Assembly (NCBI GenBank): GCA_902766695.1
Contig: CACXEY010000254.1
Coordinates: 1 to 62,606 of the forward strand
DNA from: an uncultured bacterium
Lineage (GTDB): Bacteria; Verrucomicrobiota; Kiritimatiellia; CAIQIC01; Lenti-01
Reading direction: 5' to 3'
Length of the DNA stretch: 62,606 nt
Part shown: piece by piece, positions 14,387 to 59,239 of the stretch
Numbering within the stretch: position 1 is the first letter of the stretch
Layout: every line of letters starts with the position of its first letter
Notes under the pieces: model-generated
What the model saw: the letters and a program-made list of their open reading frames with translations, nothing else
Databases searched by the model: none
What the model was told of the DNA's origin: nothing
Program-made: the position numbers and the translations under genes

Positions 14387-14415
14387 TGCCGGATGACAAG
14401 GAAACAGGACCGCCC

Positions 14416-41231: not shown

Positions 41232-41253
41232 CTCTCATTCTCCTTCCGCGCCC
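41219..41253 (-). promoter_or_regulatory. conserved 35-nt cassette/leader junction (stop + Shine-Dalgarno + ATG), copy 1
   Basis: agaatgcgttcatctctcattctccttccgcgccc is identical, except for one base, to 58679-58713. Confidence 0.8.
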
Positions 41254-43526: not shown

Positions 43527-46500
43527 CTACCGGCCCATGTGGCGGGTCGGGGGCTTGTAGAAGTCGGTCGGCGAGTAGGTCCAGACCCAGTCCACCGTCG
43601 CGCCTTTCTCGCCGTTGCCGCCGGCGGAGATGAGCACGAGCATGTCGTTCGGATGGATGGGCGTGCCCGTCACTTCCAGCCTGTTCTTGTTGTAGCGCCA
43701 GGTGCCTTCGGCATCGCAGTACATCGTCGACTTCTCGCGGATTTCCTTCGTGGCGGTGTCGATCACGTACAGCTTGTCCGCGTCCACCCAGTTGCCCGCC
43801 TTCATCCGGCCCGGCTGGGGCACGCCTGCCGCGTTGGTCGCGACCAGGCGCAGCTGCTTCGGATGCACGGACACCGGCAGGTTCAGCGACAGGGTGTTGT
43901 ACACGCCCTTCGTCGCCGTGACGGACTGGCGGAAGACCAGCGCCCCGGACGCCGTCCCGTCCCGGCCCCCCGGCTTGGCGGAGGACGTGGACGCGGAGGC
44001 GACCGCGACCACCTCGTTCGTCGGCGGCACCTGCAGGATCGGATGCCACAGGATGGCGTTGAGCCGGTTGGTGCCCTTCGTGGCCGTGATCGACGGGTCG
44101 TTGTGCTCCGTCCACCACGGGAGGTCCGTGCCATCCGCCTTCTTGCCGCTCGGCAGGTTGATGGAGAACGGCCGCATGAAGAAGTGGTCGGCCAGCACCT
44201 TCGTGGTCACGTCCTCCACGGCCGCGTTGTTCTCGCATTTCCACCACTTCCCGTCGCTGGCGAAGAAGTACTGCTCCTTGGTGCTGCCGCGGACGTGGTC
44301 GGCATCCCCGGCCGTGTAGAACTCGATGACGACGGCGCCGTTGGTGGATGCCGGGCTGTCGGCGTTGGGCGGCCACATGTCCGTGTCCGTCCCGAACACC
44401 CCGGCGAACGTGTTGGTGTAGGGCACGCCCTGCAGGCTCACGTAGTTGAACCCTTCGGACAGCACCACGTTGTTCATCGAGTACACTTCCTCGCTCGCCA
44501 GCGGTTTCTCGCCCTGCCACCGTCCCTTGTAGCTCGCGCGGAAGAACCGCAGGTTGTCGTTCACCGTGTCCAGACCGTCCGTCTGGTAGTTCCAGTTGGT
44601 CTTGACCGTCCCGACGAGGTTCCAGCCTTCGTCGCCTTCCTCGGTGAAGCTCGGCGCGTCGCGGTAGATCAAGTCGTACTCCTTGCTCACCTTCCCGACA
44701 CCGTCCTTCTGCCCGGCCGCCATCCAGTACAGGGCGGCTCCGCGCTTGGCCTGCGGATTGATGGGCTTCATTCCGGTGTCGCCCGAGGCGGGGATGTCGG
44801 CGGCGATGTCCGCGCTCGCCCGGACGAGGCCCTGCGTGACGGCGAACTTGATCGTGTTGTTCGTCGCCCAGCTGGAGTCGTTGACGGGGCCTTCGTTGCC
44901 GGCCTTGTCCACGCCGACGACCACGAACAGGTATTCACGGTCGAAGTCCAGGTCGTACACCCGCACCGACGGGGTCGAGACCTCGTCCAGGCCGCTGTAC
45001 TTCCTCTGGGTCGTCGACGGATCCGCGATCGGCGCGTCGTTCGTCACCGCGAGCCAGCCCGCGGCCTCCGAGCCGAAGGTGTCCGCCTCGACGTAGTCGC
45101 GGAGGATGATCTGGGCCGCCGACATCTCTTCGGACGCCGCCTGCGCTTCGACCGCCTGCGGATCGTACTCGCGGTAGTACACCTTGTACGTCCGCCACGG
45201 CGAGAGGATGTCCGTCGCCGCGCGGCCCTTGGCCTTCGCATCCGCCTTCACCGCGTCCGGAATCTTGTCGTAGTTCGTCTTGTCGCCCGTCGGATCGTCC
45301 GGCCCGACTCCGCTCGGGGTCCAGGTGATGTCCATCTGCGTCGTCGGGTCGTCCACCGCGTCGGTGCTGGCCCCGGCGCCATGGCCGCCCGGGAGGGCGA
45401 CCGCGGTCGGCTTGGTGAAGTCGAGCGCCAGCGGGACGTTCGCGGCGGCCCCGGCGAGCGCGTCGCCGGCGCGGTCCGCGTCCTTGTCGACGGCGAACAG
45501 CTGGTAGTTGCCGAAGCCCTGGTCGATGGCAAGGCCGGTAAGGGTCTTGGTGACCTTGTGCTCGGCCGTGTTGGTGGTAGTGCCGGTCAGATCGGTCCCT
45601 TCGGCGACTCCGGGGGTCGTCCCCGGCGCCACCAGACGGTACCCGGCGATCCCGGCGACCTTGATGTCGTTCCCGGCCGTCCCGAAGCCCGCCGGTTCCG
45701 GGTCGACGGCCTCGGTCCACGCCACCGTCACGCTCGACAGGCTCTGCTTCCACGGCGCGTTGTCACGCGTGATCTCCCCGGACGCCACCGCATCCCCGTT
45801 CAGCCAGACGCTGGCGGGCGCCTGCGGCGCCGTGGTGTCGTCGTCGCGGATCCGCAGCGTCGGGTCTTCCAGACGCGCGTGGGCCTGGTCCGACGGGCGG
45901 TTCGTGTCGCTGTCGAAGGCTTCGACGAGGACGCGGAAGTCGAGGGATGTCGACTCGGGCGGCAGGAGGAAGCCCACCTCGTTCGTGGTCATCCCGGTCG
46001 GCCAGTACCACGTCTGCGGCGCGGCCGCGGTACCGCCGCGCGTGGTCTTGAACGCGGAGCTGTAGCCCTCGTTGAAGTGCGTCGCCAGGTTCGTCACGAT
46101 TGTCGCGGAGTTCGAGAGAACCATCGTCGTGTTCGAGACGGCGATCGTGTCGTTGAAGCCGTTCTGGATGCTCTTGGAAACCGCGTTGCCGCGCTGCAAC
46201 CCGGAGATGGAGACCCCGGTGCCGCTCTGGAGGGCGTCGCCGACGTTGGCCATCAGGTAGAACGGGGCGCTGCGGCAGAGTTCGCCGTCGTAGATTAGCT
46301 GCAGCCGCTCCGAGGCCGTGTCGCTGGCGGTGAGGGTCAGCACCTCGTACTCCGACTTCGCGCTCCAGTCCTTGTTGCTGACGCCGCTCAACGCCGTCTC
46401 GATCGAACCGCTCGGCGGGTTCGTGGCGATGAACATGCCCTTGAGCGAACCGCTCGTGCGCATCGCGGGGGCCGTCGTGTCGTTGTCCATGAACTTCAGG

Positions 46501-49500
46501 AAGCCCAGCTGCGAAACCGTGTCCAGCGAATCGTCGGCCCGGTCATCGTCCTGGTCGGTCAGCGTGGCGTTGACGGTCATGTTTGCGGTGTACGCGGCGA
46601 ACTGGTTCTTGACGAACGTGTTGGCCCACAGGGTGGAGAGGGAGTAGTGGAACGTGTTGGTGGCCGAAGGCAACCCCGCGGCCCCTTCCGTGACGTCGGC
46701 GCCGTCGTAGGCCAGAGACTTGGCGCTCCCGCCCTCCGTGTAGTTGAGCGTCAGTGCCGCCGTTGTCCACCCGCTCTGGTCGTATCCGTCGATGTCGAGG
46801 TACGCGAGCGACTGCCCGTCCCGCTTCGCCGCATCCATCTGATGGTCGGTCACCACGACCTGCACGTCCGTGCCGCTGGCGTTGTACGGCAGGCCCGACC
46901 GGTTCCCCAGCCGCATCCCCACCGGTCCGCCGAACTTCGCCCCCAGGGACGGCGCCTGGGTGTCGTCGTCGTGCAGCTCGAAACCGGTCGCGATTGTGAC
47001 GGCGAGCGCGTCGTCCGTCCGGTCGCGGTCGTAGTCGTGGACCGTGCTGGCGAGGACGTACTCCTTACTGCCCTCGCCCGTCAGTTCGCTCGAGAGCTTG
47101 AGCGTCTTGCCGGCGGCCACTTCCTGCGTCTGGAGTTCCAGTTTCGCGCCGGGCTCGCCGTTGTCGAAGTCGCCGGTCGGCGCGCCCCACGTCGCCAGCT
47201 GCAGCGCCACGTTGGCGACCAGCAGCTCCGTGCCCTCGGCCGTCGTCTGCGCGATTTCCGCTTCCGCCTTGCGCACCAGCGCGTTGTCGGCGGTCCACGG
47301 CCCGATTTCCAGCTGCCGCCACGCCGCCACCGGCGCGTACTCGAACGTCTTCGCCAGCAGCACGTTCCCGCCGGCATCCTTCAGCCGCACCGTCACGGTC
47401 AGGCCGTTCACGCCCCCGCTCCCTTCCGCGACCGACGCCTTCGCCTCGAAGCCGCCGCTGACCGTCACGCCCGACACATCGGCCGCGGCGATGCTCCCGA
47501 GGGAGACGTCGAAGCCCTTCGTCGCCGACGAAACCGCCGAATCCTCGCCGGCCAGCTTCAGCACCCGCTCGCGGGTCCCGCTGCCGGTCCCGATCGTCGC
47601 GCCGGACAGCGTCCACGCCGTCGGATCGGCCTCGAACGTCCCGTCCGGGAGGACGGAGTAGGCCGCCTTGCGGATCTTGCCGTCCTTGTAGGCGAACGTC
47701 CCGCTGGCGACCGCGGTCCCGGCGCGGCCCGCCGCGTCCGCCTCGGGGTACGAGATGACGTACGCGGGGGCGTTGTCGCCCTTGAGCCACAGGCCCGACT
47801 TCTCGGTGTCCCAGCCCGACTTCTCGCCGTCCACGACTTCCAGCGAGTTGACCCACGTCGCGTGCCGCAGGTCCCCGTCCGTCACGTCCATCCCGCGCGG
47901 CGACATCGTGATGCCGAGCAGCTTGATCTTGTTGATGCCCCAGTTCCCGGTCCCGTCCGCCCCGTAGGCATACAGCCGGTACCGCCACGTCGTCCCCTCC
48001 GCGTTCTCCGTGCCGGCCCAGGACATCACCACGTTCTTGATCGTCTCCTGGCTCCCGTCCGTGGACGAATCCACCGCCTTTTCGACCAACAGGTCTTGCA
48101 CCAGCGGGTGTTCCGTGTTGAACGAGTTCTGCATCACCACGCTCACGTCCGTCAGCAGGAAGCCCTGCGACCCGTTGATGCCGCTCGCCTCCCACGTCAC
48201 CGTGAAGTCCCCCGCCTGGTCCGTCGGCAAATCGAAGCTCACCACTTCGTAGTTCGCGAATTTGTTCGCCGCGGACTCCGCGAAGTCCGCACTCGCGTGC
48301 GTCTTCACCACCGTCCGCGTTCCGCTCCCGATCCGGTACCCCACCGTCAGGGTCGCCCCGTCCTTGACGCCCCCGATCCGCCCCACGCGGTACTGCACCC
48401 GCGTCATCGCGCGGCCGTTCGAGTTCGGTTGGAACGACGGGCTCGCCAGCGACGCCGTCCCCCCGGTGCTCTCCAGCGTGAACCGCAGGATGCCGTTCGC
48501 CTTCTCGAACAGCCCGCCCGACACGTTCCAGGCCGGATCCTTCTGCCCGTCGGCGGTCACCGCGGCCAGCGTCGTCACGTTGGCCGCCTCCTGCACCGTC
48601 AGCGTGTACAACGTCGGCCCCTTCGCCGTCACGCGGTTGTCGAACTGCAGCGTGTCCGCCGTCCAGCGCGCCCCGTTCTCCCCGCACACGTCGAACTGGA
48701 AGTACTTCGCCCCGCCCGCCGTCTGGTACGTCGCGCCCTGCATCCCGCCTTCCAGCGACATGTATCGCCGGCTCATGGCCGACCAGTCCTGGCCCTCCGG
48801 AACGCTGCTCGCCCGTTCGGTCCATTTCACGCTGTCCCCCGTGATGGCCGTGTCGCCGGACGACCCCACGCTCCACGCGCTCATCTCCGTCGCGTCGATC
48901 CCCTTCAGCCCCGTGTTCGTGGACCAGCTGGCCGGCTTGCCGCTCGTCGACCATTCCCACGACGCCAGCGCCCCGAAATCCACGTAGTTCGTCCCCGACC
49001 CCAGCAGCGCGTATCCCGGGCTCGTCGGCTCCGTCGCGTCGTCGTCCGTCAGCATCAGCGTACCGAAGGTGATTTCCGCCTCGGTCTGGTCGCCGGTGCG
49101 GTCGTTGTCGCAATCCCAGGCGTGGAGCTGGACGAGGTTGGTGACGCCGTCGCTGTGGTGGCCGATGTAGTCGAGGACGTTGGGCACGCCGAAGAGATGG
49201 CCGAGGCTTGCCTCTGTGAGTTCGCCGAACTCCCAGGCGAGGATCGTGCCGTCGCCGGTTCCGGGGCCGTGGAGTTTGGTGTCGTCCTTGTAGTACTTGA
49301 TCGTGCTCTTGTCCGAGTTGAACTTGTCCACGTTCTCCTCGGAAGTCACCCACCCGTCTTCCGAGCGCGTGTAGTAGGTCGTCCCCGCCTGCACGCTCGT
49401 GTCCTCCGCCGGCACGTACTTCCCGCCCGCGAGCACGTACCATCCCTGTTCCTTCGGGTTCGCCGCGCCCGGCGACACCACCGCGGAATACGGGTACCCG

Positions 49501-52500
49501 GTCGAGTTCCACGACCGCGTCCGGAACGCCGTGTTCGTCCAGGTCCAGGTCTTGACGGACTCGCTTGCGGCCGTTCCGTACTTCAGCCCGCTGGTGATGT
49601 GCTGGTCGTACACGTTGAAGAGGAACGTCAGCGGCGCTCCCAGCATCGCGTCCGTCAGCTGGTACGTCACGCCCTGCCCCGTCCCGTCCAGGCGCGGCAG
49701 CAGCTTCTGGTTCGTGTACATCGCCGACCAGCTCGCGGCCTGCGCCTTCGTCACGGCCTGCGTGGCGATGACGAGCGAGGGGGCGAACGGCTCGCCGTCG
49801 TTGGCGCCCGCCCAGGCCGTGGTCGCGGCCTCGGGGCCGGCGCTGTCGTCGTCGCGCACCGGGATGAGGATCAGCCGGTTCGTCGTGATGTTCCGGGCGT
49901 AGGCCGGCCCGTCGTTGCACGAGCCGCTCGACTCGGCGGTGTCGGCCGAGTAGTGGGCATGGCTCACGCCGCCTTCGGGCGTGTCGTCGTACCAGTTGTC
50001 GATCCACCCGTCGGGGACCGTGTTCCCGTTGCCGTACGTGTTGCCGTCCTCGGCCGAGACCGTCAGGTACAGCGACACGTCCGGGTCGTACGCGGGCAGC
50101 TTGAACGCCTGCGACACGAAGTTCGTGATGCACGTCGCCAGGTTCGCGTTCGGCGTCGCCGTCGTGTCCCAGAGCGTCTGGCTCGGCAGGAAGGGCAGGT
50201 CCTTGTCGTACACGTGCGTCCACCCTTCCGTCACGATCTTCTTGTCCGGGTCTTCCTCAGTTGGCAGCTCCAGGTGTGCTTCGTACACCCAGTGGATGCC
50301 GGTCTCCTGCAGGTTCGGCTCGGCCCCGGACGCCATCTTGTAGTAGCTGGTCAGGCCCGACTCGGAGGCCGACAGCTTCGTGTACGTCCAGCCCAGGAAC
50401 TCGTACCACCCTTCCGCCGACGGATTCTTCCCCGACGGGTTCGCCACCTTCGTGTACGTCCCGCCCGACTCCGTGTAGTAGTCCTTCCCGGCGGCCACGC
50501 TCGTGTCCGCCGTCTTCTTGTACGAAGCCCCCCGCTTCCAGACATAGCCGCCCGAGGTGCTCCAACCGCTCGGGCCGGTGAACGTCGCCGTGTGCTTCGT
50601 GTCCACCAGCATCAGGTCCCAGTTCGGGCTGACGCGCCCGAAGGGCGACCCGTCGCCCTTCTCGCCCAGGATGTTCCACGTGAAGGCGCCCGCCCCGCCG
50701 CCCAGCGTGTAACCGTCCGTCCCCAGCCCCTGGGAGACGCGCGCGTCGTACCGCGTCGTCTTCGTGTAGCTGCTGTCCCACGACCGGTTCGTCGCGTACA
50801 CCCCGGCATCGTCCGACCATTGCAGCACAAACCCGAACGTCGGCTTCGACCCCTCGCTGTACACGCTGTCCACGACGGCCAGCGCGTCCCCTTCCGCCTC
50901 CACCTCGTCGCGGTAGCCGATGCCGGTCTCCGGATCCGGGGTGTTGGCGAGGAAGTCCGCCACCTGCGTCCCCACGTACAGCAGCTCCGGCTTCGGCCCG
51001 TCCATGTCCTTCTGCCCCTCGACGCTGTAGCGGCGGATGGTGCCGGCCGAGAGCTGGCCGCCGTTGTCGCGCGCGCGGACCCGCCACCAGAACTGCGCCG
51101 CCGTCGTCTGCGGGCGGTAGCTCGTGTTGTCGGCCCCCTTGAGGTTGATGCGGTAGAGCACGCTGCCGTTCTCCGTGCCGCCGTCGCGGCCGTTGAGCGT
51201 CGCGCTGTCCTCGGCGAGTTCGAACAGGTAGCCCGTCACGAACCCCTTCGCGTCCGTGTCCGTGCTCGCCGTCCAGTTCAGCGTCGGGCTGCCGTGCCCC
51301 GTGTCCGCGCCCGAGAAGCCCGGCTCGTTCGGCAGGCCGTTCGGCACCACGCCGTCCTTGTCGAAGCCCACGTCGGCCCAGAAGTTCACCGTCTTGTCCT
51401 TCAGCCCCTCGTCCCACGCCCCCAGGTTCGCGTCCTTGTCGTTCACCCCGTACGGCGCGATTTCCATCGCGTCCACCGCCGCGCTCTTGCCCGGGTCGAT
51501 GTCCACCGTCGCCTTCGTGTCCTGGTTCCACCCCTGCGCGTTGACGAACGTCGCCACGGAAAAGCGCCCCGTCGTCACCGCCGTCCCGGAGGCACCCAGG
51601 CCGAGGTCGGCGCGGGAGACCCTCCATTCCACGCACGGGTCGGTGGTCCCGGCGGCGGCGGCCTGCCAGCCTTCCGTCGGCGGCTCGTACCACCGCGCCC
51701 CGTCTTCCGCGTACATCTCGACCTGCCACGTGTTCTCGCTGCCGCCCACGTAGTGCACCGCCATCTGGCGCGAGGCATACCGCTCCGCCGCCGTCCCGTG
51801 GTACGCCCCGCCCAGCTCCGTCGCGCTCTCGTCGCCCAGCCAGTTCATCGCCGTGCTACCCTCGCTCAGCCGCGTGTCCACGCCCACCGACACGTACGTC
51901 TTGTGCAGGTCCACGCTCTTGCCCGCCGGAACGTTGCCGTTCAGCCGCAGCAGGAAGTACACCCACTCCCCGTCCGCCTTCACCCGGAACTCGTCGATGT
52001 CCGCCGAGTAGCAGTCGTCCGTGTTCGACCGCAGGTCGCCCTTCTTGTCGTTCCAGACGAACTCGTTGTCGCTCGTGTCCGAACTGTTCCACGCCACCGC
52101 CGGCGCACCCGTCCAGTCGCTCCCGTCGCCGTTGACCTCCGGCATCGTCCCCGACGACCCCTCGGCCGTCGTCGCGTTCGCGTTCAGGCGCCCCGCCCCG
52201 CCCCCGGACGGCGGCTCCGAATAATAGCTGTTGTTGACCGTGTAGGCCGCGTAGTAGTAGGTCGTCTCCGGCGTCAGCCGCGTGTCGGTGAAGCCCGTCC
52301 CCGTCCCCCGGTAGATCACCGTCGCCGTGTACGAACCGTACTTGAACGTGTCGCCCACCGTGTACGCCGTCCCCTGCGCCGGATGCAGATGGGCTTCGGT
52401 CTGGGTCGACGCCCCCGCCGTCGCGAACCGCACCACCATCACCTCGTCGAACGTCCGCCCCCCGGCCGTCGCCGGCGTCCACGTCAGATTGATCTTCGTC

Positions 52501-55500
52501 GCCCCGCCCGATTCCGCGCTGAACGCCGCCGGCTTCGGCAGCACGCTCAGGTTGTACGTGTGCTTCCGCTGCGCCGTGTCGCTGTGGTCCATCGAATAGA
52601 CCGCCGTCCCGCCGCCCGACACCGCGCCGAACCCGTACAGCGGCGGCGTCGTCACGCTCGTGATCTGGTGCAGCCCGTGCCACACCGTCACCGTGTCGCC
52701 TTCCTCGCGCCCGAAGTACGTCGCGCCGACCGCCGCCGAGAACGCCGACGCCGCCGGCGAGTCGCTGCTGGTCAGCAGCGACTGCGCGCTCTGGCGGTCG
52801 CCCACCGGCCGGCTCTTCACCGCGTTCGTCACCCAGTCGCCCCGGTAGGCCGTCGTCGTCTGCCCGTCCAACCACACGAACTCCGGCGGCACCCCGCCCA
52901 GCAGGTCCTCCCACTTGCTGCCGAACCGCACCTCGTCGAAATACACGTCGCCGATCTGGTCCGTGCCGATCGACCCCGCCTGCAGCTGGATGACCCGCAC
53001 GTTCGCCAGGTACGCCCCTTCCCAGTGCGCCATCCCGTTGCCGGACGGCTCCGTTGTCGGGAGCGGCGTCCCTCCCTCCACCTTGTACGACCACGCGTCG
53101 ACCGTCGCGTGCGCCGTCGACGTCCACTTCACCCGCGCCACCACCAGGTACGCATTGTTGGCCCCGCCCGTGTCGTTCAGCGCGTACAGCGTCCCGCTCG
53201 CCGCCGACCCCACCGAAGGCGTCCCGCCCGACGACGTCGCCGCCTCGATCCCCAGCTTCGAGTGCTTCACGCTCGCCCCCGTGTCGTCCTTCATCGTGCG
53301 GCCGATGAACACCCCCTTGCTCCCGTCCGTCGTGTCGATCAGCTTGAGCCCCGCCCACCGGTTCGGGTCGTTCCACGAATACGCCATCCGGAACGCCACG
53401 TAGAACGTGTTGTTGTACCCCCCGCCCCACGCGTCGCCGCCCGTCGTGCGCTCCAGCGTCCCCGCCCCGCCCTCGCCCGGGTTCGTCAGCTTCACCGCGT
53501 TGCCCACCGCCGTCGAGTTCGCGATCGTCCCCGCGATGTTCACCGTCGAAGCGATTTCCGTCGGCCGCACCGCCGTCCACGTCCCCGCGTCCGTGTGCCA
53601 CCAGTTCGCGCCCCACCCCTGGCCGCCCTTCCAGCTGTTCCCCGACGACGCTTCCGTCGTCCCGTTCGTGTAGCTGAACGTGTCCAGGTACTCCGACGCG
53701 TCGTACGACCCCGTCTCCACCGGATTCCCCGTCGCCGCCGTGTAGCTCGGCGAATACTCCGTCGAATTCTTCGCGTACGCGAAATACCCGTGCTGCGATC
53801 CCGTCGCCACCACGTGGTCCGCCGTGCAGTACGACCCCGCCGTCGCGTCCAGCACCGCGATCACCTCCGCGTTCCCCGCCGTCGCCCCCGGTGCCCTGCT
53901 CTTCAGCGTCTGTTCCGTGGTCGACAGCGTCGTCAGCGTCCCGCCCGACTTCGCGATGAACACGATCTGCCGCGCGTTCGCCGGCGCCAGCGCCCTCACC
54001 CGCACCAATTCCTTCCCGTCCGCGGCCGCCGTCAGCTCCGCGATGTTCTCCGGCACCGCCACCGTCCCGCCCAGCAGCGCCTCCCAGCTCGTCGCCACGC
54101 GCACCTCGTCGAAGTACACGTCGCCGACCGCACCCCCGTCGGTCGCCCCCGCCAGCAATCCGAACCGCGACAGGCTGCCCGGACGGCTCCCGCTGGGAAC
54201 CGTGTACGTCACGTCCCACAAATTCGCCGCCGGCTCGCCCTCCGGCACCGCGGCCCCGTGGTAGTACCCCTTCACCGAAATCTTTCCCGTCGAGAACTCG
54301 TACTTCAGGATCACCAGATATTCGTTGTCGGTGTCCCACTGGTACGGATTGATCTCGAACGAACCGGAGTACTCCTTGTGGTCGTACGCATCGATTCCCA
54401 GGTGGTAGTCCGCCGAACTGGACCAGATGTGGCCCGCCTTGATGGCGACCCCGCTGCCGTTCCCCAGGCCGATCTGGGCCCATTTCTTCGCCCCCTCGTA
54501 CTGGTAGCTCAAAATCGCCGCCGCGTAGATCGCCCCGCTCGACACCGCCGTGAAATCCCGTGTCGCTTCCGTCTGCCAGTTCGCCTCCCCCAGCGATGTC
54601 TTGATCCGGTTCCCCGTGTTGTCCGGATACTCCGTGTAGTTCGGGAACACCGGGATGTCGCTCCCCGACTGGCTCACGATGGTCGGCGCCGTCGTCGCCC
54701 CCGTGTCCCACGCCCCGCTCCACCCGTGCTCCCCGTTCAGCCCGTTCAGGCTCACCCCGTTCGTGTAGCTGAACGTGTCCACGATTTCCTCCGCCCCGAA
54801 CGACCCCGTCGTCACCGGCTTCTCCAGCACTGCCGAATACGCATTCGCGCTGCTGTAGGCGTAGATCTTGTACGTGTGGGTGCTCCCCGAAGCCACCACG
54901 TGCTCCAGGCTCGTCCCGGTGCTCCGGTAGATGACGTGCCCGCCCAGCGTCGTGCTTCCCACCGTGTAGGTGGACCCCTGCGTCGGGGCCGTCGTCCCGT
55001 TGTCCACGACCATCACCCCGCTCGCCCCGCTCGGCTTCGTCCACGAAAGCCGGACCATCGTCTTCCCGTCCGCCGTCGCCGACGCCACCGTCACCGGGTT
55101 CGCCAGCGTGTAGCCGTTAGCGCTTCCGTAGGCTGTCGTGTAGTAGTTCGCCGCCCCCCCCGACCCGTTGAATGAGTACGCCCGGAAGTAATACCGCGTT
55201 CCCGCCGAAAGCCCCGTCACTTCAAGCGTCGTGCTCGCATCCGACCCCGCGTACACCACGTATCCCTTCGAATCGATCCTCGTCCCGCTCCCGTACCTCG
55301 CGTTCGCCGTGTACCCCGTCCCGTCCGCGGGGGCCGTGAACGAGTTTGCCGCATTGGCCTGGATCAGCGTGTACCCCGACCCGCTCGCGCGCGTGATGCT
55401 CAGCGTCAGCGTCCCCGTTGCGTTTGCCGTGATGGCAATCTCCGGTGCCGCCGCCGGCTCCGTCGAAAACGTGTACCCGTCGCATGTCGTCGCCGTCGCC

Positions 55501-58500
55501 CGGTAGTTCTCCCGGCCCGTCGCCCCGTTGTACGCGTACGCCGCGAAATAGTAGTGCGTTCCCGGCGTGAGGCCGCTGACCGTCACCGTCGTCCCGCTCG
55601 CCCCGCCAGTAGACGCGTACACCACCTTGCCCGCCCCAAGCGACGACGACGAAGCGCTCGTGAAATCGAGATTGGCCGTGTACGTCGTCCCGTCCGTCGG
55701 GGCCGTGTAACTCGGTGCCGACTCGCTCTGGTAGGCCACGATCAGCGTGTACCCCGCGCCGCTGGCCCGCGTCAGGTTCAGCTTGATGGTGCTGTCCGTC
55801 CTGCTGTTCACGCTCAGCGTGGGGGAAGCCGACGGCTCCGACGCCAGCGTGTACCCGTTCGCCGTCGCCGCCGACGAATACGCCAGCGAATTCAGTGCCG
55901 CCGTCGCGTTCGCCGTCCCCTTGTAGGCGTACGCCCGCACATAGTACCGCGTCCCCGCCGCCAGCCCCGTCACGTCCACGCTCGTCCCGCTCCCCACGTA
56001 CACGATCTTCCCGCTGCCCAGCGTCGACGCGCTCCCGTACGCCGCGTTCCCCGTGTACGTCTTCCGCGCCGTCGGCGCCGTCGTCGGGTCGCTCGTGTAC
56101 ATCACCACCATCGTCCCCGCGCTCCCGCTCGCCGCCGACCAGCTGACGTGCAGCGTGTTCACCCCGCCCGGCTGCGTCACCGCCAGCGCCGTCGGCGCCC
56201 CCGGCGCGCTCGCCGTCGTCCGGAACGTCGCGTCCGCCGTGTACCCCGTCTTGCCCGCGTCGTTCACCCCGTACCCCCGGTAGTGGTACACCGTGTCGGC
56301 CGAAAGCCCCGTCACCGCCTTCGTGTACGCCCCCGCCGCCGGCGAAGCCACGTTCGCCGTGCTCCCGTAGCTCGTCGTCTTTCCGTACTGCACCCCCAAG
56401 GTCGAGATGTTCGGCGACCCGATGGCCCCCAGCGTCGCACCCAGCGTCGCACCGCTCGACGAGAAGCCCGTCGCCGTCGGCGACGAAAGTGTCGGAGTCA
56501 CCCCGTTCACCGTCACCATCACGTCCGTGTACTGCTCCGCGTACGGGGCGTCCGCCGCCTTCGTCACCCGCACCTTGATCGTTCCGCACGCCGTCACCGT
56601 CAACTTGTCCCCGCTGATCGTCCCGGCCCCCGTCCCGCCGCTCTGCACGCTGTAGCTGAACGCCCCGCCCACGCTGCTGCCGCCCACCGTTCCGCCGTTC
56701 CCCACCAGCGTCAGCGCGCTCCCCGTGTAGTCGTACTCGTCATCAGCCAACCCCACCGCCGTCGGCGTCGAAAACGTCGCGTCGGGCGTGTAGGACGTGC
56801 CCACCCCGTTGATGGCATACCCCCGGTAATGGTACGTCGTGCCCGCGGACAGCCCCGTCGCGCTGAACGTGAACGGCGTCCCCGTCGTCGGCGCCCCCGT
56901 CGTATTGAATTTCAGGGTTGCACTCGTCGTCGGGGCCGCGCTCGTCGACACCACCACGCCGTATTCCGTGATCGTGTCGTTCCCGTCGCTCGTCACCGTC
57001 GCCCCCAGCGTCGCCGTCGTCGGCGCGATGTTCGCCGCCGTCGGACTCGCCACCGTCGGCTCCCGCGCCGCCGCCGTCGGCGTGAAGGGGCCGTAGGTGT
57101 CCCATCCGGTATCGCTGGTGCTGGTTTTGGCGCGCGCCCTGACGTGAATGTAATACGCCGTGCCGGTGGTAAGCCCGGTTTTCGTGATAGTGGTGTTGTT
57201 GTTGACCGCAGTGGTGCAATCGGTACTTGCCGTGTGGCTGGAACTTGTGGTGACAGTGTAGTGGTATGCCGTGTTGTCCCCGTTCCCGTTCGGGTTTACT
57301 TTGAAGGTGACGCTGGTCGCATCATAGGCAACATCGGTGATGGTAGGGGCAACCGGTTTCGTCGTTGCACTAATGGTGGTATCCGCCGTGCTCCCGCCGG
57401 CCGAAGCCCTCACCGTAAAGTAATACAATGTTCCCGGAGTGAGGGAACTTGTCTTTTTGTTGGTTCCCGGAGTGATGCTGGCGGATGGCGTTGCAGGGTT
57501 GGAAGTGCCGTATCCGTACGTGTGGGTAGTGGCAGCGCCATTCACACCTGTTGCGGCCAAAATGGTAATGTAGTCCGTAGATCGCGCCACAACCGAAACC
57601 GAGGGAGCCGTCGGCAGCGTCGTCACCGTCTCCGTGACCGTCGAGCTGTTGTTCCCTCCCGCCGTCGCCATCGCGGTGATGGTGTACGTCGTCCCCGGCG
57701 AAAGGCTGCTGACCGTCACGGCGGTTCCCGCCGTGCAGGCCTCTGTGGGCGTCCCCGAGCTCGTGCCCACGATGTACTTGTACGTCGCCGCGCTCCCGTT
57801 CCCGTTCGCGTTGACCGTGAACTTGACGCTCGTGCTGCTCGGTGCCGAAACGCTCGTGATGGTCGGCGCCTTCGGCGATGTCGTTCGTGTCGTGTTGCCG
57901 CTAGTGGCGCTTGAACCTCCCGCCGTGGCCGTGGCTTTGATATAATACGTCGTCCCTGGTGTCAGACTGCTCTTCGTCACGGCCGTTCCCGCCGTGCAAG
58001 CGGTGTCCGGCGTCCCGGAGCTGCTCGTCCCAAAATAGTACTTGTACGTCGTTGCACTCCCGTTTCCGTTCGCGTTGACCGTGAACTTGATACTTGTGGA
58101 ATCCGAGGAATTCACCGTGATGGTCGGTGCCGTCGGCGCCGTCGTGAAAGAGGCGTTGGGATTGTTATAGGCATAAATATTCCCATTATTCCAATCATCC
58201 CAACCATGGAAATAGTATTCAACCGTTGTCCCAGGAGGAAATGCGCTACTGGGCGTATACTGCCAAATCGAGTTCCCGTCATCGTGCTTGATGTAGCTCA
58301 TGCTGTGGGTACCCCATGAGCCGTCGTTGATACCCACTTCGGCATGCAAACCCGAATAGTCTTGGTTCATCGCAATGGTGAAGGTTCCCTTGTCTCTTCC
58401 ACTATACGTCGTATAGCTACCGAAAATACCCATCCAAGATGGGAACGCCTTCGCCACACCCGCGCCCCCCAGCAGCGTCCCGGCGGCCAAAATCCAAGCG

Positions 58501-58691
58501 GCGGCGGCGGCGGTCCACCGTCGTCCCGAGCGCACCTTCCGCGATTGGGCATTGAGCATGGAGCATGGTGCATGGATGGAAGTGGATTGAGCCTTCATGT
58601 TCGTTTCCTCCGTCATGGCGGTGGGTGGAATCGTGGGATCGTTGAATCGTTGGATCGTTGAATCGTTGAAATTGTTCGAGAATGCGCTCAT
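43527..58691 (-). CDS. giant secreted multi-domain surface protein 2 (~5,054 aa), paralog of giant protein 1
   Basis: Uninterrupted frame with a signal peptide. There is an N-terminal beta-sandwich-like domain and more than 15 FN3-like modules, followed by a part collinear with giant protein 1. ATG 58691 lies 3 nt after the antitoxin stop and follows AAGGAG plus 8 nt. Alternative in-frame starts are at 58616, 58598 (GGAGGAAACGAAC-ATG) and 58559. Confidence 0.9.
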   Translation of the reverse strand: MSAFSNNFNDSTIQRFNDPTIPPTAMTEETNMKAQSTSIHAPCSMLNAQSRKVRSGRRWTAAAAAWILAAGTLLGGAGVAKAFPSWMGIFGSYTTYSGRDKGTFTIAMNQDYSGLHAEVGINDGSWGTHSMSYIKHDDGNSIWQYTPSSAFPPGTTVEYYFHGWDDWNNGNIYAYNNPNASFTTAPTAPTITVNSSDSTSIKFTVNANGNGSATTYKYYFGTSSSGTPDTACTAGTAVTKSSLTPGTTYYIKATATAGGSSATSGNTTRTTSPKAPTITSVSAPSSTSVKFTVNANGNGSAATYKYIVGTSSGTPTEACTAGTAVTVSSLSPGTTYTITAMATAGGNNSSTVTETVTTLPTAPSVSVVARSTDYITILAATGVNGAATTHTYGYGTSNPATPSASITPGTNKKTSSLTPGTLYYFTVRASAGGSTADTTISATTKPVAPTITDVAYDATSVTFKVNPNGNGDNTAYHYTVTTSSSHTASTDCTTAVNNNTTITKTGLTTGTAYYIHVRARAKTSTSDTGWDTYGPFTPTAAAREPTVASPTAANIAPTTATLGATVTSDGNDTITEYGVVVSTSAAPTTSATLKFNTTGAPTTGTPFTFSATGLSAGTTYHYRGYAINGVGTSYTPDATFSTPTAVGLADDEYDYTGSALTLVGNGGTVGGSSVGGAFSYSVQSGGTGAGTISGDKLTVTACGTIKVRVTKAADAPYAEQYTDVMVTVNGVTPTLSSPTATGFSSSGATLGATLGAIGSPNISTLGVQYGKTTSYGSTANVASPAAGAYTKAVTGLSADTVYHYRGYGVNDAGKTGYTADATFRTTASAPGAPTALAVTQPGGVNTLHVSWSAASGSAGTMVVMYTSDPTTAPTARKTYTGNAAYGSASTLGSGKIVYVGSGTSVDVTGLAAGTRYYVRAYAYKGTANATAALNSLAYSSAATANGYTLASEPSASPTLSVNSRTDSTIKLNLTRASGAGYTLIVAYQSESAPSYTAPTDGTTYTANLDFTSASSSSLGAGKVVYASTGGASGTTVTVSGLTPGTHYYFAAYAYNGATGRENYRATATTCDGYTFSTEPAAAPEIAITANATGTLTLSITRASGSGYTLIQANAANSFTAPADGTGYTANARYGSGTRIDSKGYVVYAGSDASTTLEVTGLSAGTRYYFRAYSFNGSGGAANYYTTAYGSANGYTLANPVTVASATADGKTMVRLSWTKPSGASGVMVVDNGTTAPTQGSTYTVGSTTLGGHVIYRSTGTSLEHVVASGSTHTYKIYAYSSANAYSAVLEKPVTTGSFGAEEIVDTFSYTNGVSLNGLNGEHGWSGAWDTGATTAPTIVSQSGSDIPVFPNYTEYPDNTGNRIKTSLGEANWQTEATRDFTAVSSGAIYAAAILSYQYEGAKKWAQIGLGNGSGVAIKAGHIWSSSADYHLGIDAYDHKEYSGSFEINPYQWDTDNEYLVILKYEFSTGKISVKGYYHGAAVPEGEPAANLWDVTYTVPSGSRPGSLSRFGLLAGATDGGAVGDVYFDEVRVATSWEALLGGTVAVPENIAELTAAADGKELVRVRALAPANARQIVFIAKSGGTLTTLSTTEQTLKSRAPGATAGNAEVIAVLDATAGSYCTADHVVATGSQHGYFAYAKNSTEYSPSYTAATGNPVETGSYDASEYLDTFSYTNGTTEASSGNSWKGGQGWGANWWHTDAGTWTAVRPTEIASTVNIAGTIANSTAVGNAVKLTNPGEGGAGTLERTTGGDAWGGGYNNTFYVAFRMAYSWNDPNRWAGLKLIDTTDGSKGVFIGRTMKDDTGASVKHSKLGIEAATSSGGTPSVGSAASGTLYALNDTGGANNAYLVVARVKWTSTAHATVDAWSYKVEGGTPLPTTEPSGNGMAHWEGAYLANVRVIQLQAGSIGTDQIGDVYFDEVRFGSKWEDLLGGVPPEFVWLDGQTTTAYRGDWVTNAVKSRPVGDRQSAQSLLTSSDSPAASAFSAAVGATYFGREEGDTVTVWHGLHQITSVTTPPLYGFGAVSGGGTAVYSMDHSDTAQRKHTYNLSVLPKPAAFSAESGGATKINLTWTPATAGGRTFDEVMVVRFATAGASTQTEAHLHPAQGTAYTVGDTFKYGSYTATVIYRGTGTGFTDTRLTPETTYYYAAYTVNNSYYSEPPSGGGAGRLNANATTAEGSSGTMPEVNGDGSDWTGAPAVAWNSSDTSDNEFVWNDKKGDLRSNTDDCYSADIDEFRVKADGEWVYFLLRLNGNVPAGKSVDLHKTYVSVGVDTRLSEGSTAMNWLGDESATELGGAYHGTAAERYASRQMAVHYVGGSENTWQVEMYAEDGARWYEPPTEGWQAAAAGTTDPCVEWRVSRADLGLGASGTAVTTGRFSVATFVNAQGWNQDTKATVDIDPGKSAAVDAMEIAPYGVNDKDANLGAWDEGLKDKTVNFWADVGFDKDGVVPNGLPNEPGFSGADTGHGSPTLNWTASTDTDAKGFVTGYLFELAEDSATLNGRDGGTENGSVLYRINLKGADNTSYRPQTTAAQFWWRVRARDNGGQLSAGTIRRYSVEGQKDMDGPKPELLYVGTQVADFLANTPDPETGIGYRDEVEAEGDALAVVDSVYSEGSKPTFGFVLQWSDDAGVYATNRSWDSSYTKTTRYDARVSQGLGTDGYTLGGGAGAFTWNILGEKGDGSPFGRVSPNWDLMLVDTKHTATFTGPSGWSTSGGYVWKRGASYKKTADTSVAAGKDYYTESGGTYTKVANPSGKNPSAEGWYEFLGWTYTKLSASESGLTSYYKMASGAEPNLQETGIHWVYEAHLELPTEEDPDKKIVTEGWTHVYDKDLPFLPSQTLWDTTATPNANLATCITNFVSQAFKLPAYDPDVSLYLTVSAEDGNTYGNGNTVPDGWIDNWYDDTPEGGVSHAHYSADTAESSGSCNDGPAYARNITTNRLILIPVRDDDSAGPEAATTAWAGANDGEPFAPSLVIATQAVTKAQAASWSAMYTNQKLLPRLDGTGQGVTYQLTDAMLGAPLTFLFNVYDQHITSGLKYGTAASESVKTWTWTNTAFRTRSWNSTGYPYSAVVSPGAANPKEQGWYVLAGGKYVPAEDTSVQAGTTYYTRSEDGWVTSEENVDKFNSDKSTIKYYKDDTKLHGPGTGDGTILAWEFGELTEASLGHLFGVPNVLDYIGHHSDGVTNLVQLHAWDCDNDRTGDQTEAEITFGTLMLTDDDATEPTSPGYALLGSGTNYVDFGALASWEWSTSGKPASWSTNTGLKGIDATEMSAWSVGSSGDTAITGDSVKWTERASSVPEGQDWSAMSRRYMSLEGGMQGATYQTAGGAKYFQFDVCGENGARWTADTLQFDNRVTAKGPTLYTLTVQEAANVTTLAAVTADGQKDPAWNVSGGLFEKANGILRFTLESTGGTASLASPSFQPNSNGRAMTRVQYRVGRIGGVKDGATLTVGYRIGSGTRTVVKTHASADFAESAANKFANYEVVSFDLPTDQAGDFTVTWEASGINGSQGFLLTDVSVVMQNSFNTEHPLVQDLLVEKAVDSSTDGSQETIKNVVMSWAGTENAEGTTWRYRLYAYGADGTGNWGINKIKLLGITMSPRGMDVTDGDLRHATWVNSLEVVDGEKSGWDTEKSGLWLKGDNAPAYVISYPEADAAGRAGTAVASGTFAYKDGKIRKAAYSVLPDGTFEADPTAWTLSGATIGTGSGTRERVLKLAGEDSAVSSATKGFDVSLGSIAAADVSGVTVSGGFEAKASVAEGSGGVNGLTVTVRLKDAGGNVLLAKTFEYAPVAAWRQLEIGPWTADNALVRKAEAEIAQTTAEGTELLVANVALQLATWGAPTGDFDNGEPGAKLELQTQEVAAGKTLKLSSELTGEGSKEYVLASTVHDYDRDRTDDALAVTIATGFELHDDDTQAPSLGAKFGGPVGMRLGNRSGLPYNASGTDVQVVVTDHQMDAAKRDGQSLAYLDIDGYDQSGWTTAALTLNYTEGGSAKSLAYDGADVTEGAAGLPSATNTFHYSLSTLWANTFVKNQFAAYTANMTVNATLTDQDDDRADDSLDTVSQLGFLKFMDNDTTAPAMRTSGSLKGMFIATNPPSGSIETALSGVSNKDWSAKSEYEVLTLTASDTASERLQLIYDGELCRSAPFYLMANVGDALQSGTGVSISGLQRGNAVSKSIQNGFNDTIAVSNTTMVLSNSATIVTNLATHFNEGYSSAFKTTRGGTAAAPQTWYWPTGMTTNEVGFLLPPESTSLDFRVLVEAFDSDTNRPSDQAHARLEDPTLRIRDDDTTAPQAPASVWLNGDAVASGEITRDNAPWKQSLSSVTVAWTEAVDPEPAGFGTAGNDIKVAGIAGYRLVAPGTTPGVAEGTDLTGTTTNTAEHKVTKTLTGLAIDQGFGNYQLFAVDKDADRAGDALAGAAANVPLALDFTKPTAVALPGGHGAGASTDAVDDPTTQMDITWTPSGVGPDDPTGDKTNYDKIPDAVKADAKAKGRAATDILSPWRTYKVYYREYDPQAVEAQAASEEMSAAQIILRDYVEADTFGSEAAGWLAVTNDAPIADPSTTQRKYSGLDEVSTPSVRVYDLDFDREYLFVVVGVDKAGNEGPVNDSSWATNNTIKFAVTQGLVRASADIAADIPASGDTGMKPINPQAKRGAALYWMAAGQKDGVGKVSKEYDLIYRDAPSFTEEGDEGWNLVGTVKTNWNYQTDGLDTVNDNLRFFRASYKGRWQGEKPLASEEVYSMNNVVLSEGFNYVSLQGVPYTNTFAGVFGTDTDMWPPNADSPASTNGAVVIEFYTAGDADHVRGSTKEQYFFASDGKWWKCENNAAVEDVTTKVLADHFFMRPFSINLPSGKKADGTDLPWWTEHNDPSITATKGTNRLNAILWHPILQVPPTNEVVAVASASTSSAKPGGRDGTASGALVFRQSVTATKGVYNTLSLNLPVSVHPKQLRLVATNAAGVPQPGRMKAGNWVDADKLYVIDTATKEIREKSTMYCDAEGTWRYNKNRLEVTGTPIHPNDMLVLISAGGNGEKGATVDWVWTYSPTDFYKPPTRHMGR
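58446..58559 (-). other. predicted Sec signal peptide of giant protein 2
   Basis: MLNAQSRKVRSGRRWTAAAAAWILAAGTLLGGAGVAKA / FPSW. Confidence 0.7.
58547..58574 (-). repeat. degenerate heptamer array (coding strand CATGCAC CATGCTC CATGCTC AATGCCC) in the giant gene 2 leader
   Basis: Plus strand gggcatt gagcatg gagcatg gtgcatg. It occupies the same position relative to the signal peptide as the perfect heptamer array in giant gene 1, with an ATG every 7 nt. Confidence 0.75.
58628..58667 (-). repeat. tandem octamer array (RRATCGTK x5) in the giant gene 2 leader
   Basis: gaatcgtg ggatcgtt gaatcgtt ggatcgtt gaatcgtt. It encodes FNDSTIQRFNDPTI if translated from 58691. Confidence 0.85.
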
Positions 58692-58713
58692 CTCTCATTC
58701 TCCTTCCGCGCCC
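58679..58713 (-). promoter_or_regulatory. conserved 35-nt cassette/leader junction (stop + Shine-Dalgarno + ATG), copy 2
   Basis: agaatgcgctcatctctcattctccttccgcgccc; one mismatch to 41219-41253. Confidence 0.8.
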
Positions 58714-58916
58714 TTCCGGGCCTCTTCCCACGGCACGAACTTCGCTTCGCCCGATTCGGCGAGGCGGCGTCTCTCCGCCAGCACCTCCGCATGCCACGCG
58801 GGAGGCTCGGCCGTCGCCTCGCCCTCGGCGAGGCTGTCCCAGAGCCATTCCATCGCGCGGAGTTTCTCCTCGCGGGACATCTTCCCGATTTCTTCCTGCG
58901 TTGCCAACATCGTCAT
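58695..58916 (-). CDS. putative addiction module component (Unstab_antitox / TIGR02574-like antitoxin), 73 aa
   Basis: MTMLATQEEIGKMSREEKLRAMEWLWDSLAEGEATAEPPAWHAEVLAERRRLAESGEAKFVPWEEARK fits the L..ER..L...LWDSL....P.WH..EL..R......G.....W pattern. ATGA overlap with the A3 stop. Confidence 0.7.
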   Translation of the reverse strand: MTMLATQEEIGKMSREEKLRAMEWLWDSLAEGEATAEPPAWHAEVLAERRRLAESGEAKFVPWEEARKGAEGE

Positions 58917-59239
58917 TCTCCTTCCCCGCCCTCCCGGGCCGAACCGCCCGTATCCCCGGCCCCGTACTCCGGCGAATCCTCGTGCACGCACACGGCATTC
59001 TCCGCGTCCTTCCGCCCTCCCCGCCTCCGCGGCGTCTGCCTGGACGGCGCACTCCCCGCAGGTTCCGCAGGCATCCGCCCCACGCCGCGCCACCTGTCCC
59101 CGTACAAGGCATACTCCTCCAATGCCTGCTGCGCGACCCTGTGGCAGTAGTCGAAAACACCATCCACCGTTCCGCCCCCTGCTTCCCAAATCTTCCGCCC
59201 CGTTTCCTCCAACTCGACCAAAACAGGATCGTCGTTCAT
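58913..59239 (-). CDS. small PIN-associated protein A3 (108 aa)
   Basis: MNDDPVLVELEETGRKIWEAGGGTVDGVFDYCHRV.... ATGA overlap with the PIN-3 stop. The tail VCVHEDSPEYGAGDTGG again copies the pre-PIN linker. Confidence 0.5.
   Translation of the reverse strand: MNDDPVLVELEETGRKIWEAGGGTVDGVFDYCHRVAQQALEEYALYGDRWRGVGRMPAEPAGSAPSRQTPRRRGGRKDAENAVCVHEDSPEYGAGDTGGSAREGGEGE

Follow-up and report, generated by a model that had tools for sequence, protein, structure and literature searches.

Two old giant paralogs with a collinear C-terminal part in a family of secreted Kiritimatiellia proteins

The 62,606-nt stretch of DNA from a rumen-type Kiritimatiellia bacterium analysed in this work (contig CACXEY010000254.1, whole length, hereafter the window) is dominated by two giant open reading frames (ORFs), at 16793..40981 (g1) and 43527..58691 (g2), both on the minus strand and separated by 2.5 kb. 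The comparison of the two proteins confirmed that g1 and g2 are true paralogs, collinear over their last ~3,900-4,070 residues, as had been proposed for g2 in a short note made from the DNA letters and a list of ORFs (the original prediction). Judging by the relatives found in other genomes, the duplication that gave rise to them is old, and the two proteins represent two subclasses (~7,000 and ~5,000 residues) of a family of giant secreted Kiritimatiellia proteins. As for their role, we lean, with modest confidence, towards that of adhesin-like surface fibres exported by the Sec pathway. The two genes are:

43527..58691, minus strand: g2, complete coding sequence, 5,054 residues plus stop (ORF list; G+C content at third codon positions, GC3, of 0.92 in frame; independent 5,054-residue gene call on an identical ENA contig).
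16793..40027, minus strand: g1, coding sequence from its likeliest start, 7,744 residues plus stop (ORF list; ATG at 40027; independent 7,744-residue gene call on an identical ENA contig).

The mechanically defined g1 ORF (16793..40981) is 8,062 residues long, and all g1 residue numbers given here follow it. The start of g1 is most likely the ATG at 40027, because this codon and the stop of the DUF1016 gene upstream overlap (as ATGA) and because the independent call on the ENA contig uses it as well. Parts of the window recur in identical form in ENA and Logan contigs, so the arrangement of the two genes is reproducible.

When compared by BLASTP without filters, the two proteins give a single collinear high-scoring segment pair (HSP), which pairs g2 983-5054 with g1 3979-8062 at 34.9% identity over 4,353 columns (2,061 bits). 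With SEG masking and composition-based statistics there are two HSPs, one pairing g2 1152-2702 with g1 4137-5714 (35.5% identity, 731 bits) and the other pairing g2 2822-5054 with g1 5760-8062 (35.7%, 1,037 bits). As controls, g1 was shuffled in blocks of 50 residues or reversed, and these versions scored at most 36 bits against g2; the similarity is therefore due to homology and not to composition. The original prediction had named shared low-complexity composition as what would undo it, and we now give this explanation practically no credence. It is true that T, S, G and A make up ~40-55% of the residues and that the N-terminal FN3 arrays yield many weak off-diagonal matches (21-24% identity), but neither accounts for the 731 and 1,037 bits left after correction, for a shared part nearly devoid of internal repeats or for the same order of segments in relatives as distant as L006 (a homolog on a long-read contig, described below). 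The limits of the shared part can be placed conservatively at nt 55238 in g2 and nt 28573 in g1, within ~140 nt of those first proposed (55100 and 28440), and the predicted length difference of less than 1% holds for the unfiltered shared parts (4,072 residues in g2 and 4,084 in g1). Additionally, all the peptide motifs quoted in support of the collinearity were found where they had been placed. In a global MAFFT alignment of g1 with g2, 39% of the aligned columns are identical, and the identity rises to 55-67% at g2 2194-2660, 3142-3240 and 4541-5054. At the DNA level no stretch exceeds 75% identity, and outside the shared part the N-terminal regions are unrelated beyond a generic FN3 likeness.

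43530..55238, minus strand: part of g2 shared with g1, residues 1152-5054 (BLASTP with controls; MAFFT profile; non-repetitive).
16796..28573, minus strand: part of g1 shared with g2, ORF residues 4137-8062 (BLASTP with controls; MAFFT).

The age of the duplication can be judged from relatives of each copy in other genomes, the closest genome found being the sheep-rumen metagenome-assembled genome (MAG) Kiritimatiellae bacterium RGIG6649, from which the related loci come. In a neighbour-joining tree of the C-terminal module, g2 groups with the RGIG6649 locus L002 in 100/100 bootstraps, and g1 groups with g2 in 0/100. L002 is a g2 ortholog, with 70% protein and ~80% DNA identity over g2 1057-5054, and a second copy in the same MAG (L001, truncated by its contig) is slightly closer to g1, although its placement beside g1 is weak (20/100 bootstraps). 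Among the other relatives, P0030 is a further ortholog of g2 (78% identity over the C-terminal half) and P0172/P0020 is the ortholog of g1 (72.5% identity over 6,100 residues). Based on the tree, on the closer relatives found elsewhere and on a g1-g2 DNA identity of at most 75%, the duplication is old, and the comparison with orthologs that had been suggested for dating it places it before the split of these strains or species.

This dating goes against the history originally proposed, when that is taken to mean that one giant gene was recently duplicated within this genome and one copy then had its distal head modules swapped. The closeness of the two genes on one strand, the nearly equal lengths of their shared parts and the unrelated N-terminal regions are what such a history would leave behind; nevertheless, we consider it very improbable, given that the copies are only 35-39% identical in protein and at most 75% in DNA, that they are never sisters in the tree and that each has relatives of 70-78% identity in other genomes. 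Moreover, RGIG6649 holds a clear g2 ortholog (L002) next to a second copy (L001, weakly placed by g1, as said), and the additional ~2,000 residues of g1 are common to the whole g1 class. The ratio of non-synonymous (dN) to synonymous (dS) divergence per module, also suggested as a check, turned out to be uninformative between g1 and g2 (dN 0.45-1.09), because dS estimated by the Nei-Gojobori method (NG86) reaches a plateau (0.5-0.9) at a GC3 of ~0.9.

Homologs were searched for with three segments of 900-1,140 residues. Word-indexed searches returned 13, 6 and 1 matches, while an exhaustive profile search with the mid-core (g2 residues ~2100-3240) retrieved 1,460 proteins, of which 183 had E<=1e-30. 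The whole 922-position mid-core profile is covered, with E-values from 0 to 1e-219, by ~30 representatives of 50%-identity clusters, which are 2,384-7,684 residues long. The small yield of the word-indexed searches can be attributed to the fragmentation of giant genes by frameshifts, as happens in L006, where a homolog of at least 16 kb, collinear with g2, is spread by frameshifts over ~12 consecutive ORFs (positions 489-17136 of a 381-kb long-read contig). In both g1 and g2 the mid-core lies upstream of the C-terminal module, and the same order is found in L006 and in the set P0020-P0047; ~20 full-length relatives have 1,430-2,065 residues between the mid-core and the C-terminus, and 1,945-4,929 residues before the core. 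The last ~620 residues align in g1, g2 and all 13 matches of the C-terminal search, and a terminal motif, W.W.Y.P..FY..P(T/D)R.MG, was seen by eye within 10 residues of the end in 26 of the 34 listed members (the count was made on the ending P[TDS]R..G), most of the others looking truncated. These ~620 residues also occur in gene calls of ~1,300 residues, at least some of which are giant genes broken by frameshifts.

Five relatives (P0037, P0040, P0042, P0043 and P0046) are collinear with g1 from residue ~2058 onward, and g1 shares with the proteins of this class a further ~2,000 residues (2058-4136); therefore, g1 and g2 represent two subclasses. The domain that begins at g2 residue 2185, in the mid block, is also present in smaller proteins together with GH66, alpha-amylase (GH13), CBM53 or Por_Secre_tail (a type IX secretion system, T9SS, tail), with matches that cover profile positions ~85-450. 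The tips of some relatives have CBM53/CBM48-like matches that stay just below the Pfam cut-offs (CBM53, 26.3 bits for a cut-off of 27.6; AMPK1_CBM, 22.3 for 26.8), which may hint at carbohydrate binding by those relatives and is not evidence for g1 or g2 themselves. All named matches come from Kiritimatiellia or related MAGs, and in the databases all are called "hypothetical protein", except for one "uncharacterized repeat protein (TIGR01451 family)"; the family of g1 and g2 thus appears to be undescribed.

Along the chain, from the N-terminus to the C-terminus, the two proteins are organized as follows, in addition to the shared parts given above:

58446..58691, minus strand: g2 leader and signal peptide, residues 1-82 (sole hydrophobic segment at 61-80, then a cleavage-type site between AKA and F).
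58152..58445, minus strand: g2 N-terminal tip domain, residues 83-180, FPSWMGIF...WDDWNNG (from the sequence; Pfam match not significant, CBM_56 with E=0.3).
55239..58151, minus strand: g2 variable FN3-like array, residues 181-1151 (four units of ~88 residues, then four to five of ~120; Pfam fn3).
50592..52139, minus strand: g2 best-conserved mid block, residues ~2185-2700, starting EVNGDGSDWTG...DIDEFRVKAD (45-57% identity to g1; invariant columns in alignment A3).
50217..50578, minus strand: g2-specific insertion, residues ~2705-2825 (gap block against g1; all mid-region homologs skip g2 ~2700-2823).
43530..45530, minus strand: g2 C-terminal family module, residues ~4388-5054, ending WVWTYSPTDFYKPPTRHMGR (in all 13 matches of the C-terminal word-indexed search; 57 invariant columns in alignment A2; AlphaFold2 model with a predicted local distance difference test, pLDDT, of 60).
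39791..40027, minus strand: g1 leader and signal peptide, ORF residues 319-397 (hydrophobic segment at 372-390, then a site between AEA and E).
34811..39790, minus strand: g1 variable N-terminal region, ORF residues 398-2057 (PATR-like beta-helix stretch and FN3/Ig-like modules).
28574..34810, minus strand: g1-class-specific array, ORF residues 2058-4136 (units of ~280 residues, FN3 plus a MAM/Reelin-B-like jelly roll; absent from g2).
16796..18880, minus strand: g1 C-terminal family module, ORF residues ~7368-8062, ending WNWTYSPEDFYQPPTRNMGR (family alignments).

Each protein has one N-terminal hydrophobic segment, followed by an AXA site, and no further transmembrane segment in a hydrophobicity scan; neither a lipobox Cys nor a C-terminal hydrophobic segment was found in either of them. 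Both contain much T, S, G and A and little Cys. The leader of g2 is near-identical in the allele P0030, that of g1 has homologs in L123 and several family members, and a first domain resembling the g2 tip, which the original prediction took for a beta-sandwich-like domain, is also seen in P0028. In the g2 array, which cannot be aligned with its ortholog L002 before residue ~1130, an iterated hidden Markov model (HMM) finds nine FN3-like modules at residues 181-1185, of which Pfam fn3 puts only a few above its cut-off (for the pair, Pfam fn3 scores 98 and 146 bits); the original prediction had counted more than 15 such modules. Internal repeats span g2 residues 181-1290, with 38-64% protein identity and one neighbouring pair at 84% DNA identity (57700-57900 with 57955-58155), in agreement with the tandem copies of high nucleotide identity noticed originally. 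In g1, internal repeats lie at residues 1800-3300 and, together with Pfam fn3, Reelin_subrepeat-B and MAM matches, are the basis of the ~280-residue units; the PATR match at the start of the protein is below cut-off (23.4 bits for 27).

The shared part is of another kind, being almost free of internal repeats. The exceptions are g2 ~1204-1328 with 1554-1697, 1455-1575 with 1845-1967 and one short D-x-D-x-D-R motif. Searched against Pfam (in large pieces, and in 450-residue pieces at E<=5), NCBIfam and PDB sequences and profiles, it gave nothing beyond weak fn3. An AlphaFold2 model of the C-terminal 700 residues (15 sequences) is almost all beta, with a pLDDT of 60, and the Foldseek search with it against PDB and BFVD returned generic FN3-tandem chains only (template modelling, TM, scores of 0.1-0.17). 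The model of g2 2100-3240 (8 sequences) is likewise almost all beta, with a pLDDT of 46, and was judged unusable for structure search. As a side observation, the g2 insertions at ~50217-50578 and 49350-49451, which are absent from g1 and from other family members, carry the aromatic motifs AEGWYEFLGWTYTKL and EQGWYVLAGGKYVP...TTYYTRSEDGW, which by look of sequence resemble cell-wall-binding or glucan-binding repeats.

The heads of the proteins differ even between orthologs. The identity of g2 to L002 is 34% before residue ~1130 and ~70% for the rest; similarly, g1 and P0172 are ~28-43% identical before residue ~1800 (33% over the variable N-terminal region) and ~72% identical for the rest. Neighbouring head units reach 84% DNA identity and 48-64% protein identity, and no sign of imported modules was found in the heads, which look as if they grew, and also shrank, in place, with growth by tandem module duplication; the head swap originally suggested is not supported. 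The idea of a constant C-terminus and a variable N-terminus, also part of the original prediction, stands across the whole family in so far as the lengths before and after the core are concerned, while between alleles the shared part is itself a patchwork. Segments of 96-100% identity adjoin segments of 34-55% identity: g2 and P0030 are 96-99% identical at residues 3249-4330, where g1 and g2 are least alike, and 41-54% identical at 1329-3100; L002 and P0030 are 99% identical at 4333-4600 and then 63-74%; and g1 and P0172 alternate along their length between 98-100% (4375-4573 and 7138-7538) and 34-58% identity (34% at 3982-4179).

In the last ~450 residues the distinction between orthologs and paralogs dissolves and the relationships become reticulate. 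There, L001 and L002, from a single MAG, are 80% identical to each other and 73% and 68% (L002 with g2) identical to their counterparts in the window, and g1 resembles P0002 (75%) more closely than it does P0172, its ortholog (68%). The mean dS between g2 and L002 is 0.31, with five-fold differences from one part of the gene to another (0.11-0.56); in the adjacent HisG and TPR genes, dS between the window and RGIG6649 is 0.023 and 0.033. Taken together, the mosaic identity patterns, the reticulate 3' end and the uneven dS indicate repeated exchange of homologous segments among alleles and, at the 3' end, probably also among paralogs.

The HisG and TPR genes belong to a 3.3-kb block (window 11047-14335) that is 98.4-98.7% identical to L002 15527-18810 and to L004, with non-homologous DNA on both sides. 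It is flanked in RGIG6649 by a UvrA-like gene and a hydrolase gene, and in the window by GrpE, a HemN-like gene, g1 and a solute-binding protein gene; the g2 ortholog of RGIG6649 occupies the place that g1 holds in the window. Both arrangements occur in public data, L003 being of the window type and L004 of the RGIG6649 type. That the window and RGIG6649 differ by a simple deletion or inversion was rejected, this block alone being shared and its flanks differing on both sides.

Considering all these features, we favour, with the modest confidence stated above, the reading of g1 and g2 as cell-surface fibres, because of their Sec signals, their beta-rich modular bodies with FN3 arrays, their extracellular type of composition and their variability between strains. 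In such a mechanism, each protein would be exported by the Sec pathway by means of a cleavable signal peptide, itself preceded by an unusually long leader, and cleavage would leave the mature N-terminus free. Because the N-terminus would be released and the last ~620 residues are the sole universal module, this C-terminal module is the best candidate for an envelope holdfast, and would most likely keep the protein at the cell envelope in every member of the family. The non-repetitive, mostly beta chain of ~3,900 residues would then form a constant body in both paralogs, whereas the N-terminal FN3-like arrays, variable in number and in their first domain, would lie at the distal end, in contact with the environment. 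The two paralogs would thus provide two fibres differing in reach and tip, diversified by tandem module duplication in the head and by the exchange of segments, from allele to allele and, at the 3' end, from one paralog to the other. This putative polarity agrees with that of the original prediction (a distal N-terminus and a C-terminal base). The description of the shared part as a stalk or base fared less well, that part being non-repetitive, which is not typical of a stalk, and no anchor or ligand-binding domain having been identified.

Several observations weigh against the fibre reading. By Pfam and NCBIfam, neither a known adhesive domain nor a known anchor was found in g1 or g2, the absent anchor types including LPXTG, PEP-CTERM, the autotransporter barrel, RTX, the T9SS tail and SLH. 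No conserved partner genes, such as those of a secretion system, were seen beside family members. As noted, the shared part lacks the repetitive build of a simple stalk, and both AlphaFold2 models are poor (pLDDT 60 and 46), so that no function can be assigned from the fold. As to the history of the genes, P0030 and P0172 are unphased metagenome assemblies, in which chimeric assembly of co-existing alleles could exaggerate the mosaics; NG86 dS is unreliable at a GC3 of ~0.9, which makes the dN/dS values (omega) soft; and the relatedness of the window to RGIG6649 rests on one 3.3-kb block, by which a genome-wide relatedness is not established.

A core that is non-repetitive and keeps its order leaves room for two other roles. 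One is a reversed polarity, with the C-terminal 3,900 residues as the distal working part (an enzyme, a toxin or a cell-contact device) and the variable FN3 array as a spacer close to the cell, adjustable in length. Domain order kept over a long evolutionary distance is what a machine would need, the mid block is a domain found with glycoside hydrolases elsewhere, g1 begins with a PATR-like beta-helix similar to surface-attached passenger domains, and the position of the adhesive domain is variable in Gram-negative fibrillar adhesins (PMC8286594). We nevertheless find this arrangement unlikely, since AXA cleavage sites with no lipobox Cys should leave the N-terminus free, searches of Pfam, NCBIfam and PDB profiles revealed no catalytic or toxin domain, and the N-terminus is the most variable part between orthologs, as expected for an exposed tip. 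Somewhat less probable again, in our judgement, is that these proteins are not adhesins but structural components of a coat (S-layer-like or a capsule scaffold), their variability serving as an escape from phages or grazers. Toxin-antitoxin and nuclease genes, which are often seen in variable islands, adjoin both giants; the mosaic hypervariability extends along the whole length and not just the tip; there are at least two copies per genome; and no adhesive domain was found, all of which would suit a coat. Such a role is harder to reconcile with the absence of SLH or any other known S-layer anchoring domain, with the carbohydrate-module hints in the tips of relatives, which fit binding, or with a beads-on-a-string build of 5-8 thousand residues, generally more typical of fibres than of lattices.

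As surface fibres, g1 and g2 would have their closest known parallels in the fibrillar adhesin-like (FA-like) proteins (Monzon et al. 2021, PMC8286594), nearly half of which have no known anchor. The resemblance lies in long secreted multidomain chains with tandem FN3/Ig-like stalk modules, a variable terminal region and quick evolution; two of the four defining features are present in g1 and g2 (secreted and long; repeat stalk), a known anchor not being among them, and on the remaining one, an adhesive domain, there are the hints from the tips of relatives and from the mid block given above. They differ from FA-like proteins in that no Pfam adhesive domain was detected, in their proposed anchor, an undescribed module of ~620 residues, and in that three quarters of g2 and half of g1 consist of ~3,900 conserved, unannotated and non-repetitive residues instead of a repeat stalk. 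Very large genes are frequent in phyla of the Planctomycetes-Verrucomicrobia-Chlamydiae (PVC) group, including Verrucomicrobiota, with a proposed role in adhesion to other surfaces (West-Roberts et al. 2023, bioRxiv 10.1101/2023.11.21.568195); Kiritimatiellae are not mentioned in that work (0 mentions). The Omnitrophota giants exceed 30,000 residues and contain dockerin, peptidase and similar domains, whereas the family of g1 and g2 ranges over 2.4-7.7 thousand residues, with a core lacking known domains. As a kind, giant variable surface proteins of PVC bacteria are already known; the interest of this family lies mainly in its long unannotated constant region and its clear segmental mosaicism.

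Other giant Gram-negative surface adhesins include the RTX adhesins of type I secretion systems (T1SS; LapA/MpIBP type) and the type V autotransporters. Large autotransporters have extended signal peptides, which the long leaders of both genes recall, and g1 has its sub-threshold PATR-like repeat; however, there is no Autotransporter, YadA or IAT_beta match in g1 or g2, and the model of the C-terminal 700 residues matches FN3 tandems only. Unlike the RTX adhesins, they have no HemolysinCabind match and carry a Sec-type signal peptide, and, unlike PEP-CTERM proteins, they end in ...FYKPPTRHMGR and ...FYQPPTRNMGR, with no hydrophobic segment and no NCBIfam match. Mosaic surface-antigen genes that vary by segmental recombination are known from neisserial pilE/pilS and Borrelia vlsE. 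As in those systems, the alleles are patchworks of near-identical and divergent segments, and exchange between paralogs is suggested at the 3' end; in contrast to them, no silent cassette array is seen in the window, both copies are full-length and the exchange is inferred between strains. Periscope proteins contain long arrays of near-identical repeats. They are surface proteins that change in length by gain and loss of tandem repeat modules (PMC9704523), to which the neighbouring units of 84% DNA identity in the g2 head are comparable, but most repeats of g2 and g1 are only 38-64% identical, and no length variation between strains was seen within a single array (L002 being cut before the head).

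The long leaders of both genes carry short tandem repeats:

39905..39949, minus strand: heptanucleotide repeat CAATGCA, ~6 units, in the g1 leader (Tandem Repeats Finder, TRF; codes ...QCTMHNAQCTM...).
58628..58670, minus strand: octanucleotide repeat AACGATYC, ~5 units, in the g2 leader (TRF; upstream of an internal Shine-Dalgarno-like ACGGAGGAAA and an ATG).

Neither unit length is a multiple of three. Octamer units number 0 in g1, 4 in g2 and 10 in L123, which bears both tracts in one leader (~3930-4280), its heptamer tract having the same length as that of g1. Between the conserved ACGGAGGAAA motif and the Met of the signal peptide there is a fixed spacing, of 69 nt in g1, 69 nt in L123 and 66 nt in g2. 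These repeats could reflect tuning of expression or phase variation. No length variation within a population was found for them, and an exact search of Joint Genome Institute (JGI) metagenomes for the g1 leader with a variable tract gave no match. A Logan contig that ends inside the g1 tract was rejected as evidence of polymorphism, such an end being expected for a 45-nt repeat with short k-mers. The CAATGCA repeat was also rejected as family-specific: (CAATGCA)x3 or more occurs in more than 120 metagenome contigs (L009-L128; 33-69% GC), only one of which is related to g1 and g2, so that it is a widespread simple repeat. In ORF calls such arrays often read "...MHNAQCTMHNAQ..." or "...CIVHCALCIVH...". 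In addition, the far-upstream starts of many family members encode similar short peptides (MNRFFKVF, MSAFSNNF, MNWFFNNF, MKALFRMIF, MKNLFQLL), ~45-80 residues before the signal peptide, at window 40004-40027 and 58668-58691 and in P0028, P0039, P0043, P0044, P0023 and P0172; the leaders resemble an extended signal-peptide region, but Pfam detects none.

The remainder of the window is that of a high-GC (~68%) bacterial chromosome, with housekeeping genes in the flanks that have a frame-specific GC3 signal, encoding ComEC, Obg, a PALP enzyme, a solute-binding protein, a TPR protein, HisG, GrpE, a HemN-like radical-SAM enzyme and a PAS/SpoIIE phosphatase. Two long plus-strand open frames lie antisense to the giants, at 16442-34426 (5,994 codons, opposite g1) and 46647-55175 (2,842 codons, opposite g2); having no GC3 signature, they were rejected as genes, and the best explanation for them is that stops are rare in frames antisense to high-GC coding DNA. 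The genes next to the giants are:

40024-41118, minus strand: DUF1016/YhcG PD-(D/E)XK nuclease gene (Pfam; gene call on an identical ENA contig).
41440-42285, minus strand: DUF2442 protein gene (Pfam; gene call on an identical ENA contig).
42524-43024, minus strand: possible PIN-like protein gene (match not significant, E=0.046, 14.8 bits for a cut-off of 23.6).
58695..58916, minus strand: antitoxin-like gene (Unstab_antitox, Pfam E=1.5e-16), ending 3 nt before the g2 start codon.

Genes of toxin-antitoxin or nuclease type thus lie directly upstream of both giants (40024-43024 and 58695-59898), including one for a PIN protein with 24.8 bits for a cut-off of 23.6. A search of the window for tRNAs and Rfam families gave no candidate mark of an integration site. 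Just outside the giant-gene block, a repeat of ~90-230 bp with GC-rich, hairpin-like motifs occurs in inverted orientation at 15123-15350 and 60272-60466, and it recurs by the RGIG6649 giant genes (L001 5638-5724 and L002 12479-12701) with 73-92% identity; it may be a REP-like (repetitive extragenic palindromic) element or a recombination site.

More speculatively, these genes might be an unrecognised variation system of gut and rumen Kiritimatiellia. In this scenario, which we think doubtful, the ~3,900-residue body, made of about two dozen undescribed domains, would be kept collinear for the exchange of any segment with other alleles or with the paralog and would allow cassette-like antigenic or ligand variation over the full length of the fibre, the 7- and 8-nt leader repeats would tune expression and the C-terminal 620 residues would be a new outer-membrane or cell-wall anchor.

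Kiritimatiellia are common and poorly understood polysaccharide degraders of guts, rumen and sediments, whose largest genes are annotated as "hypothetical protein". The definition of this family provides a target for structural genomics, as well as a way for annotators to join gene fragments. Because of their mosaicism between strains, the giant proteins are likely to be a main point of contact with phages, hosts or substrates and, if this is true, they would be markers of strain-level diversity in rumen metagenomes. Finally, if the C-terminal module turned out to be an anchor, it would help to close the gap left by the many fibrillar adhesins for which no anchor is known.

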